Shown here piece after piece: positions 5,224 through 8,237 of a DNA stretch of 64,000 nucleotides. The stretch is from Eledone cirrhosa (lineage: Eukaryota). The notes under the pieces are model-generated. The model worked only from the letters and a program-made list of their open reading frames with translations. It was not told the DNA's origin and did not search any database. A program made the position numbers and the translations under genes. The stretch is taken from NCBI GenBank assembly GCA_964016885.1, contig OZ024762.1, positions 9,858,001 through 9,922,000 on the forward strand, read 5' to 3'. Position 1 is the first letter of the stretch, and each line of letters starts with the position of its first letter.

Positions 5224-5376
5224 AAATAAAGGATTATGAGTTCATGCAATTGACCTATGTTTCGTCACTATATATATATATATATATATACATACATATA
5301 TACAAACATATATAGATACATATATATATATATATATATAATATAAGATCAAAAGATGGTTAAAGGAGTTCAATAT

Positions 5377-5445
5377 ATTTTATTATGCGCATTTCAAAAA
5401 CAAACATCATCAAACAATAATATTTGTGTTTTCATCAGATAAAAC
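5377..5445 (-). ncRNA. Type I hammerhead ribozyme (family B)
   Basis: Reverse complement of the 8043-8111 motif. Confidence 0.88.
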
Positions 5446-6676
5446 AGGAGAACATGATATGAAGGCTAAAAAAACACTTGTTGATAGTGCAGTTTTAAAT
5501 CAACATATGAAAAGTGGTTTTAGGTTGATGTGTGATATTGGGAAAAATATTTTATTTAGAGAGGGGGGGAGAGAAAAGGATGAAAAGGTAAGGAGATGAG
5601 AGGGAGAGATGGGTGATAGAGAGAAAGAGATAGTTTTTATAACAGAGAGGAGATATATATTATATAGAGGGGTTGAAAACCGTTGGAAGATACTGTATAA
5701 ATTAAAAATTTTGAAAATTAACGAAGGGAGGATATGTGCGAGGAAAAAATATATTATATTTAGGGAGGGGTGGGGGTGGAAAGGATGAAAAAAAGGGGAG
5801 GAGATGAGAGTGAAGGTGGAAAGGGAGAGATGGGTGATAGAGAGAAAGAGATAGTTTTTATAACTGAGAAAAAGATATAATGTTTTAATATAGATAGGTT
5901 GGGAACCGTTGGAAGATAATGTATAAATTAAAGGAATTTGAAAATTAACGAAGGGAAATTATGTATGGAGATAGAGAGAAAAAAATAACGAAGGGAGATT
6001 ATGTATGGAGATAGAGAGAAAAAAATAATAATTGTGGGTGAATATTCAAAAGGAGAAATGTAGGAATCTTAAAATTAGCAAAGAGAAAATGTTTATGTAT
6101 AGGATTTGAGAAAAATTTATATTGAATTCATATGTATTAATAATGAGTTTGTTGATGGGGAGAAAAAAATAATAATAATAAATTAAGGATGAAATTGAGA
6201 TTAAAAAGATTTATGATAGAGAGAAAAAATAATAATGATTGCGGATGAATACTCAAAAATGTCAAAAACAAATGTTATTGTTTTACGAAGAGATATAATG
6301 AGGGTGATGAGTAAACGGGTATTATAGAGTGTATAATGCCCTTTAAAGTAAGGTAGATGGGTATATTTTAAAGAATATATGAGTATATATTAAAAAAATA
6401 TATATAATAATAAATTAAGGATGAAATTGAGATTAAAAAGATTTATGATAGAGGGAAAAAAAAAAAAAAAAAAAAAATAATAATGATTGCGGATGAATAT
6501 TCAAAATGTCAAAAACAAATGTTATTGTTTTACGAGAAGATAGGATGAGGTAAATGAATGAACGAGTACTATAGAGTGTATAATGCCCTTTAAAGTAAGG
6601 TAGATGGGTATATTTTAAAGAGGTGTATGTATATGTGCCTTTGAGAAAAGATTCTAAATTGATAAAGAATTGAATA

Positions 6677-6888
6677 TTAACTGTATACTTTGTGAAAAGT
6701 TCTATGGAATTTATGAAGGCAGATGGAAAACAAATCCGAGCGTCTATTTATTATGGATTCTAGGTTAGAGATAATGGTAAATTTTTCATTTAGGCAGAGA
6801 TTACAGATTTTAGATAGAGAACTGTTCAAGTACGAGGATGCAGAAGAAATCTTTTTCCAAAAGATGTTATATTTAATGTTTTTGTCTT
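6677..6888 (-). pseudogene. Penelope-like element GIY-YIG endonuclease C-terminal fragment
   Basis: IFWKKISSASSY..SKICNLCLNEKFTII....INRRSDLFSICLHK matches the PLE C-terminal W.I...C.LC..EK..I...N.R.E....C.H pattern. Confidence 0.85.
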
Positions 6889-8042
6889 TTACTTTAAAGG
6901 GCATTATACACTCTATAGTACTCGTTCATTCATTTACCTCATCCTATCTTCTCGTAAAACAATAACATTTGTTTTTGACATTTTGAATATTCATCCGCAA
7001 TCATTATTATTTTTTTTTTTTTTTTTTTTTTTCCCTCTATCATAAATCTTTTTAATCTCAATTTCATCCTTAATTTATTATTATATATATTTTTTTAATA
7101 TATACTCATATATTCTTTAAAATATACCCATCTACCTTACTTTAAAGGGCATTATACACTCTATAATACCCGTTTACTCATCACCCTCATTATATCTCTT
7201 CGTAAAACAATAACATTTGTTTTTGACATTTTTGAGTATTCATCCGCAATCATTATTATTTTTTCTCTCTATCATAAATCTTTTTAATCTCAATTTCATC
7301 CTTAATTTATTATTATTATTTTTTTCTCCCCATCAACAAACTCATTATTAATACATATGAATTCAATATAAATTTTTCTCAAATCCTATACATAAACATT
7401 TTCTCTTTGCTAATTTTAAGATTCCTACATTTCTCCTTTTGAATATTCACCCACAATTATTATTTTTTTCTCTCTATCTCCATACATAATCTCCCTTCGT
7501 TATTTTTTTCTCTCTATCTCCATACATAATTTCCCTTCGTTAATTTTCAAATTCCTTTAATTTATACATTATCTTCCAACGGTTCCCAACCTATCTATAT
7601 TAAAACATTATATCTTTTTCTCAGTTATAAAAACTATCTCTTTCTCTCTATCACCCATCTCTCCCTTTCCACCTTCACTCTCATCTCCTCCCCTTTTTTT
7701 CATCCTTTCCACCCCCACCCCTCCCTAAATATAATATATTTTTTCCTCGCACATATCCTCCCTTCGTTAATTTTCAAAATTTTTAATTTATACAGTATCT
7801 TCCAACGGTTTTCAACCCCTCTATATAATATATATCTCCTCTCTGTTATAAAAACTATCTCTTTCTCTCTATCACCCATCTCTCCCTCTCATCTCCTTAC
7901 CTTTTCATCCTTTTCTCTCCCCCCCTCTCTAAATAAAATATTTTTCCCAATATCACACATCAACCTAAAACCACTTTTCATATGTTGATTTAAAACTGCA
8001 CTATCAACAAGTGTTTTTTTAGCCTTCATATCATGTTCTCCT

Positions 8043-8111
8043 GTTTTATCTGATGAAAACACAAATATTATTGTTTGATGATGTTTGTTTTTGAAATGCG
8101 CATAATAAAAT
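8043..8111 (+). ncRNA. Type I hammerhead ribozyme (family B)
   Basis: gttttat-CTGATGA-aaacacaaatatta..tgatgtttgttttt-GAAA-tgcgca(palindrome)-TA-ataaaat. Confidence 0.9.
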
Positions 8112-8237
8112 ATATTGAACTCCTTTAACCATCTTTTGATCTTATATTATGCATACTCCAGTCCCACAAACTGTAGAGTGCTTCTTATCCGATATCTGCA
8201 TTGCTTTATTGTACTACAATAAAACTCACCTCCTACA

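Follow-up and report, generated by a model that had tools for sequence, protein, structure and literature searches.

We analysed a 64,000-nt stretch of the Eledone cirrhosa genome (contig OZ024762.1, positions 9,858,001 to 9,922,000), here called the window, which contains no N. Its longest inverted repeat, the pair 5338-8150, is a 5′-truncated insertion of a Penelope-like element (PLE) into a (TA)n run. Positions given as "unit" are those of a 3896-bp reference copy of this element. P and T denote its two 3′ ends, at unit 3808 (window 8150 and 5338) and unit 3896 (window 8238), which lie 88 nt apart. The parts of the insertion are as follows.

5269..5337, no strand: left target flank, a (TA)n-rich microsatellite seen in the sequence
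5338..6891, minus strand: tail-less P arm, unit 2267-3808 read right to left, which takes in the 290-bp "spacer"; identical to the reference unit at 1537 of 1544 aligned bases
6677..6891, minus strand: end of the open reading frame (ORF), its last 71 codons (6891-6680) and stop (6679-6677)
6889..6891, no strand: head-to-head junction, a 3-nt overlap common to both arms
6889..8238, plus strand: tailed T arm, unit 2560-3896, 3′ untranslated region (UTR) and pseudo-long terminal repeat (pseudo-LTR) only; identical to the reference unit at 1329 of 1336 aligned bases
8151..8238, plus strand: tail of 88 nt, between the fixed 3′ ends P (8150) and T (8238)
8239..8275, no strand: right target flank, (TA)n seen in the sequence

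Local alignment of the inverted repeat (5338-6455 with 8150-7033, and 6456-6598 with 7031-6889) covered 1261 bases with 0 mismatches, and the single difference between 5338-6598 and 6889-8150 is an extra T in a homopolymer of the right arm. A preliminary description of this DNA had already proposed a near-perfect palindrome whose arms differ by one homopolymer base, a one-sided tail on the right arm and a recent insertion, and all three proposals held up. With no substitution among the 1261 arm bases the insertion is young, and on the octopus rate given in PMC13282606, should it apply here, a rough estimate puts its age below about 0.7 million years. Both arms carry the same six variants relative to the reference unit (homopolymers excluded), (TA)n abuts both outer ends of the palindrome, and the unique flanks beyond differ. 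The P arm extends 293 nt further 5′ than the T arm. The tail is 87 nt long if its final T is assigned to the target, and in tandem copies it continues into the next ORF. The same description had placed a GIY-YIG C-terminus on the minus strand of the spacer, which is borne out by 71 codons that exactly match those closing an intact 821-codon frame; they contain the CxxC-E-N-CxH end of the nuclease without its GIY/YIG core. The frame was also said to run into the left arm; it ends 79 nt short of that arm, so it is the 3′ UTR that continues there. By itself the locus is an ordinary member of its family, and a double-stranded RNA hairpin formed by its arms is possible in principle.

A search with the 291-bp centre of the palindrome gave 1195 candidates in the species' own 3.0-Gb genome, and the 40 that were scored yielded 40 full-length matches at 100% and one partial match. 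From twenty 10-kb stretches, which represent 16 insertions, we built the 3896-bp unit, which occurs in tandem arrays of up to about 2.5 copies with a period of 3.9 kb. It contains a 2.4-kb ORF of 821 codons with a YRDD motif and a 1.4-kb 3′ UTR with two duplications of about 210 nt, which accounts for the unit's excess length. Seven of the nine full frames in loci L021-L040 are identical to the reference protein and two have one or two changes. These intact ORFs (L023:5775-8237; L021-L029, L034) are spread over five contigs and lie within tandem arrays. Because nine ORFs are intact, seven of them protein-identical, and all sit in tandem arrays, the family looks currently active, as judged from sequence.

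The predicted protein structure (pLDDT 85.5) had telomerase reverse transcriptases as its top Foldseek matches (TERT, E 4e-8). A separate model of the C-terminal domain best matched T4 EndoII (prob 0.94, E 0.067), Hpy188I and I-TevI, which we take to be GIY-YIG enzymes. Between reverse transcriptase (RT) and nuclease lies an Asn-rich linker modelled at low confidence (model residues 584-655). Pfam gave nothing significant for four short frames or for the full ORF, and a sequence-profile search of the PDB likewise gave nothing significant, with one unrelated match at E 0.31. Among 8000 scored proteins, 77 were homologous at 30-41% identity, one of them labelled Argonauta hians. In an alignment of this ORF with 47 of the 77 homologues, the GIY-YIG motif reads LIY...YFG, and the Y, G, R, H, E and N columns are kept in 46-47 of the 48 proteins.

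The element thus has the features of an endonuclease-bearing (EN+) PLE: a telomerase-like RT in a single ORF, a GIY-YIG endonuclease (EN), tandem or inverted pseudo-LTRs with a one-sided tail, and a hammerhead motif within the pseudo-LTR, present as a motif with predicted cleavage. Within the PLEs, the Hydra clade is characterised by a C-terminal EN without CCHH, by RWK, DKT, a CxCX5C linker, CxxC and CxH motifs, a hammerhead and (TA)n targets (Craig et al. 2021, PMC8557442). The motifs point to membership of this clade. There is one Cys between LIY and YFG, in a column that is Ala in 39 of 48 proteins; RWK appears as RWT here (R in 40, W in 40 and K in 30 of 48); DKG is replaced by DKT, with T in 40 of 48; the linker Cys are present in 47 of 48 and the CxxC and CxH flanking E and N in 46 of 48; and (TA)n adjoins all ends listed for the 16 insertions. 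With the Hydra-clade elements described in PMC8557442 (Hydra-1_Obim, Penelope-13_HM) the element therefore shares a single ORF, an RT with C-terminal GIY-YIG, RW(K/T), DKT, the CxCX5C linker, the CxxC and CxH around E and N, the lack of CCHH, a hammerhead near the 3′ end and the (TA)n target. The CCHH motif with two Cys between GIY and YIG that marks Penelope/Poseidon, Neptune and Nematis is absent, and the nuclease is C-terminal rather than N-terminal as in Naiad/Chlamys. Hydra-clade elements are generally under 3 kb, a tendency rather than a strict criterion, whereas the unit here is 3896 bp long with its 1.4-kb 3′ UTR and Asn-rich linker; their tails are 30-40 nt rather than 88 nt; and Hydra-1_Obim differs from this family in length and in the sequence of its hammerhead (PMC8557442). 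The present element is further set apart by its thousands of copies and its intact, identical ORFs. We rejected a non-LTR retrozyme (non-coding head-to-tail hammerhead repeats), the arms being inverted and continuous with an ORF, and a miniature inverted-repeat transposable element (MITE) or foldback DNA transposon, the ends being asymmetric (P and T) and the centres varying between copies.

Each arm contains a candidate hammerhead ribozyme, predicted from motif and pairing.

5378..5444, minus strand: type I hammerhead motif, left-arm copy, core starting at 5438
8044..8110, plus strand: type I hammerhead motif, right-arm copy, core at 8050

In the predicted fold stem I measures 6 bp, stem II is long and stem III is palindromic; cleavage is predicted between 8104 and 8105. 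Stem I is paired at 6 of 6 positions in 231 of 240 family copies, and 214 of 217 retain an intact core. Rfam did not detect the hammerheads at its gathering score or at E<=10, so the call depends on motif and pairing, and folding z-scores were not significant for either the hammerhead (-1.25) or the tail (-1.45). The preliminary description had read the locus as a truncated PLE with an inverted, hammerhead-bearing pseudo-LTR, and had suggested looking for a full RT plus GIY-YIG element from the spacer. The unit with its intact ORF, recovered with the 291-bp centre and ending identically to the spacer, agrees with that reading. The accompanying idea of an "HHR family B" mobilised by a separate partner element has to be given up, since the predicted hammerhead lies in the 3′ end, or pseudo-LTR, of the same 3.9-kb element.

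All ends listed for the 16 insertions fall at P or T, within a few bases, and then pass into (TA)n. Genome-wide, exact-match counts were 5413 for the P end followed by TA and 7930 for the T end followed by TA, and reversed-pattern controls gave 0. To see how these ends combine, we took 99 position-ordered loci on one contig (C1), of which 59 were P-anchored (the first 63 P matches, less four dropped as partners of another P match) and 40 T-anchored (the first 40 of 69 T matches that did not already have an exact P partner). There were 71 loci with P+T, 5 with P+P, 3 with T+T and 20 without a partner within 6.5 kb. P+T thus accounts for 71 of the 79 two-armed loci (binomial p ~1e-13). Short two-armed copies behaved in the same way (74 P+T and 2 P+P among 76 in 159 regions), although these regions comprise the 99 loci plus 60 chosen by a pattern at unit 3638 and hence are not independent. 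The inverted two-armed structure is therefore the normal product of this family, not a rarity. At 16 head-to-head junctions we found 12 overlaps of 1-6 nt, one blunt joint and three with 1-5 inserted bases; the junctions are scattered through ORF or UTR, in non-TA sequence.

These regularities bear on two rival explanations. If the window palindrome were a library or assembly fold-back artefact, for which it speaks that no independent read was seen bridging its junction, we would not expect P on one side and T on the other, (TA)n with different unique flanks, or a 290-bp unpaired centre. Moreover, P and T ends are both present in raw short reads from three other samples, and a palindromic centre occurs in a contig with another organism label; we consider an artefact exceedingly improbable. 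(An apparent joint of opposite strands at 6600-6889 in reads was discarded as merely the normal element reading on, and the ends of RAD-seq molecules, probably library cuts, were not used.) Two successive events, either a back-to-back second insertion at the 5′ end or a DNA inversion, together with gene conversion, could also bring arms head to head. Compound or nested insertions do occur (L073, L094, L128), and an anole PLE enzyme cuts its own ORF-pLTR junction (PMC11167929). Such a sequence of events leaves the P+T pairing unexplained, the observed junctions lie anywhere in ORF or UTR and in non-TA sequence, and arm-private substitutions persist, all of which makes it improbable.

Comparison of the arms indicates where they came from. 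In 13 long insertions the arms differ at 3 of 12263 bases within insertions versus 391 of 176283 between insertions; 31% of the between-insertion pairs of long arms are also identical, which leaves four loci as the informative cases. Among short arms (54 pairs) the difference is 1.5% within versus 5.7% between, and 16 of 16 diagnostic sites are concordant. Both complementary DNAs (cDNAs) would thus come from one source; whether that source was one RNA molecule is, in our judgement, evenly balanced. Other young insertions carry arm-private changes, and because such changes persist, ongoing conversion, which had been offered as one cause of the arm identity in the window, is not required: the six shared variants there are as expected from one source.

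Self-priming, either by fold-back copying of a cDNA or by an antisense RNA priming on its own 3′ end, would derive one arm from the other. It has been proposed for PLE inverted junctions (PMC3846280), and it accounts for the head-to-head geometry, the shared haplotypes and the 1388 perfectly palindromic centres described below. However, a copied arm cannot exceed its template, so the tailed arm would have to reach at least equally far 5′. Among the 71 P+T loci the P arm extends further 5′ than its partner in 34 and less far in 8, the two are level in 27, and 2 are unresolved; the tail-less arm therefore goes beyond the tailed one in 34 of 69 resolved loci, and it does so by 293 nt in the window. 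Either arm may also stop at unit 3638 independently of its partner, and the perfect centres follow from self-complementary first bases at that position. Self-priming is contradicted at 34 loci and could survive only at the 35 where the T arm is equal or longer, which leaves it unlikely.

We think it probable instead that the palindrome formed by twin target-primed reverse transcription, the sense RNA being primed by both nicked strands of the target, at P by one and at T by the other. The nuclease would cut both (TA)n strands; one target 3′-OH would prime cDNA at P and the other 88 nt downstream at T; the two cDNAs would extend until they stall or reach the 5′ end of the RNA; and their 3′ ends would be joined by microhomology or a few added bases and then filled in. 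The bias towards a longer P arm is consistent with two enzymes on one RNA, the P-primed one leading and the T-primed one trailing. More tentatively, and with a chance that we would put somewhat short of even, a single PLE ribonucleoprotein may copy the same capped, uncut RNA molecule twice, with the leading RT at P and the trailing RT at T on opposite (TA)n strands. Two RNAs from one locus may instead have served as templates.

The 5′ limits of the arms suggest what this template is. Arms pile up at a single base, unit 3638, an A that follows a pyrimidine in an initiator-like context and lies 125 nt upstream of the predicted hammerhead cut. Its copies in the window would be transcription starts:

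5508, minus strand: putative transcription start, left-arm copy, unit 3638
7980, plus strand: putative transcription start, right-arm copy, unit 3638

Genome-wide, 4157 copies begin at this base after a non-C, 1388 are perfect palindrome centres, the product expected when self-complementary first bases at 3638 anneal, and 4312 read through; 56% of the family copies containing one 25-mer begin here. G is the preceding base in 2062 of the 4157 non-C starts. At two-armed loci it precedes 20 of 33 ends at 3638 versus 21 of 68 other 5′ ends (Fisher p = 0.005). Where bases had clearly been inserted at the junctions of the 60 short regions, the final base was G in 14, T in 11 and A in 3, and seven further rows ended in C, which is the partner's view of a G; partnerless arms are preceded by T in 12 of 15 cases. 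The template RNA likely begins at unit 3638 of the upstream pseudo-LTR and would be capped, with its hammerhead still uncut; that the extra G is a copied cap seems to us rather likely.

A template consisting of a hammerhead-cut monomer or circle, retrozyme-like, with rolling-circle reverse transcription producing tandems and repeats, predicts a different 5′ limit. The 3.9-kb tandem arrays with near-identical ORFs, the conserved hammerhead (core in 214 of 217) and the report that retrozymes are PLE derivatives (10.64898/2026.07.22.740005) would all suit it. Yet against 4157 starts at 3638, only 9 copies begin at the cut, compared with 6 at a control base 3 nt upstream (exact patterns, that for the cut omitting copies preceded by A), and a circle offers no end for run-off. 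We therefore hold such a template to be very improbable in general, while a circular one is possible for a minority of multi-unit arrays.

With a capped, uncut template, twin priming could also explain the short copies. A transcript from the upstream pseudo-LTR would contain P and T twice. If the 3′ copy of P/T is used, long arms as in the window would result; if the 5′ copy is used, the cDNAs would run off after 171 and 259 nt, leaving the abundant hammerhead palindromes of about 430 bp. The short hammerhead copies are thus likely run-off products of the 3.9-kb element. As regards any spread of short palindromes on their own, the most frequent haplotypes of short arms are shared with long arms (41 short and 18 long; 17 and 41) and a few are confined to short arms (11 and 0; 8 and 0), in a sample that was partly picked by pattern. 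If one RNA is indeed copied twice, a single rule would account for the inversion of the pseudo-LTR and for a tail on one side only. Through run-off at the cap it would also produce MITE-like hammerhead palindromes by the thousand; these may in turn be transcribed outward from the centre, the palindrome being rebuilt at every new insertion. At L173 and L174 (G000:C1:108427530-108430150) the interior of the ORF (about unit 301-2084) precedes an arm that starts at 3638 with G, an arrangement that suggests a template jump after run-off.

Several observations weigh against twin priming on a capped RNA. Eight of the 79 two-armed loci depart from the P+T rule, and 20 of the 99 loci are one-armed, often joined directly to (TA)n at the 5′ end. 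The genome counts come from exact-match patterns that miss diverged copies, and the nuclease fold match is weak (best E 0.067). The G excess is only about two-fold over the control (50-61% versus 31%), a limit that arises because the inverted partner strand is itself G-rich. Base 3638 could alternatively be a strong RT stop or another processing site. Among the sequencing runs listed, no RNA run contained the element, which is no evidence on expression either way, and for this reason the start site, the cap and expression are read from DNA footprints. Within the window, no listed contig or read crossed the junction of this insertion (reads on 6600-7005, with 326 pieces not displayed). Finally, the anole PLE enzyme studied in vitro did not differ between strands in its start site (PMC11167929), so that P+T pairing has no biochemical precedent.

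In LINE-1 (L1) twin priming the second target strand primes on the RNA and the cDNAs join by microhomology; the second primer falls at variable internal sites, and the non-overlapping part becomes inverted. Second-strand priming on RNA would be common to both systems, whereas here both priming sites are fixed and 88 nt apart, so that, unlike in L1, the same sequence would be copied twice. An extra G at 5′ ends is also shared: in L1 the untemplated G is read as a copied cap and marks full-length 5′ ends (PMC9341517). Closer to our element is PAc, a Poseidon PLE of Anolis carolinensis, which in vitro cuts and extends both strands, uses two RNA start sites that bound the tail, accepts uncut RNA and an AT-rich target, and is predicted to act as a dimer (Frangieh et al. 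2024, PMC11167929). It shares with our element the two RT starts bounding the tail, extension of both strands, the AT-rich target and independence of hammerhead cleavage; it differs in belonging to another clade and in having its start sites inside the ORF, and the main text of that study derives neither the inverted repeat nor P+T pairing nor a cap signature.

The Penelope elements of Adineta vaga (Arkhipova et al. 2013, PMC3846280) have a head-to-head inverted pLTR, a palindromic junction, a one-sided tail, microhomology junctions, an Inr-like motif in the pLTR and an Asn-rich linker, all as here. They were read as products of self-priming on an antisense template, a question left open there with copies too few for statistics; our data favour a sense template with two primers. 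PLE hammerheads and non-LTR retrozymes likewise share the type I hammerhead and the palindromic helix III in the pLTR (PMC4209133; 10.64898/2026.07.22.740005). Retrozymes are head-to-tail monomer arrays, whereas the short copies here are inverted pairs that start at a fixed base upstream of the cut. Opposite-strand hammerhead pairs 100-700 bp apart are described in Schistosoma (PMC4209133), and Penelope-13_HM is listed with a 5′-truncated inverted copy bearing hammerheads on both strands (PMC8557442); twin priming, if true, would explain such opposite-strand pairs of other genomes.

Inverted pseudo-LTRs, tails, hammerheads, (TA)n targeting and octopus Hydra elements are thus already in print in the papers cited. 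In the open-access literature, as distinct from subscription papers, we found no report of P+T pairing, a cap-like G or run-off palindromes for PLEs. How PLEs come by their inverted repeats and one-sided tails is stated to be an unsolved question in PMC8557442 and PMC3846280, and the sole in vitro study, in its main text, accounts for the tail and not for the inversion (PMC11167929). With thousands of natural products, base-exact starts and 5′ limit, and an apparently current ORF, the mechanism is directly testable. Palindromes of this kind may be mis-annotated as MITEs or thrown out as fold-back artefacts.

Across loci L041-L139 the family comprises several subfamilies that are 80-90% identical to the young unit and share the same P, T and 3638 positions. 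The window holds a second member:

25633..25799, plus strand: single arm from the 3638 base to near P, with (TA)n on either side

Other hammerhead families neighbour the insertion. A second hammerhead palindrome, of another and seemingly unrelated family, lies at 4530-4955 (arms within 4615-4955, 92.7% identical by self-BLAST; left tail of about 85-89 nt). Its family has 819 candidates in the genome and the same two-end architecture with a fixed 5′ limit: 194 copies start at one A, 334 continue past it, and the preceding base is G in 48 of the first 100 starts listed (a hand count, made without a control base). A splice acceptor at unit 3638 was rejected, no AG preceding the start in either family. 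An exact 55-nt direct repeat, partly TA (4967-5021 and 5269-5323), encloses about 250 bp (5022-5268) with a third hammerhead (core 5173) and is possibly the long target-site duplication of another PLE fragment. A further palindrome at 59850-60300 (arms within 59930-60300, 95%), with a left tail and hammerhead cores on both strands (60035, 60199), is a relative of the 4530-4955 family at about 77% identity. More hammerhead-like cores of PLE remnants occur at 25402, 25913, 30358, 37425 and 44892, and the window as a whole is a dense cluster of PLE fragments within TA-rich DNA. It also contains a dispersed SINE-like repeat of about 300 bp at 94-98% identity (8891-9186, 35526-35838, 45348-45695, 53731-54064, 61289-61593 and 63447-63773), a 309-codon frame at 1714-2640 that by eye resembles a LINE RT fragment, and a 38-bp tandem array of about 47 copies at approximately 55900-57600.

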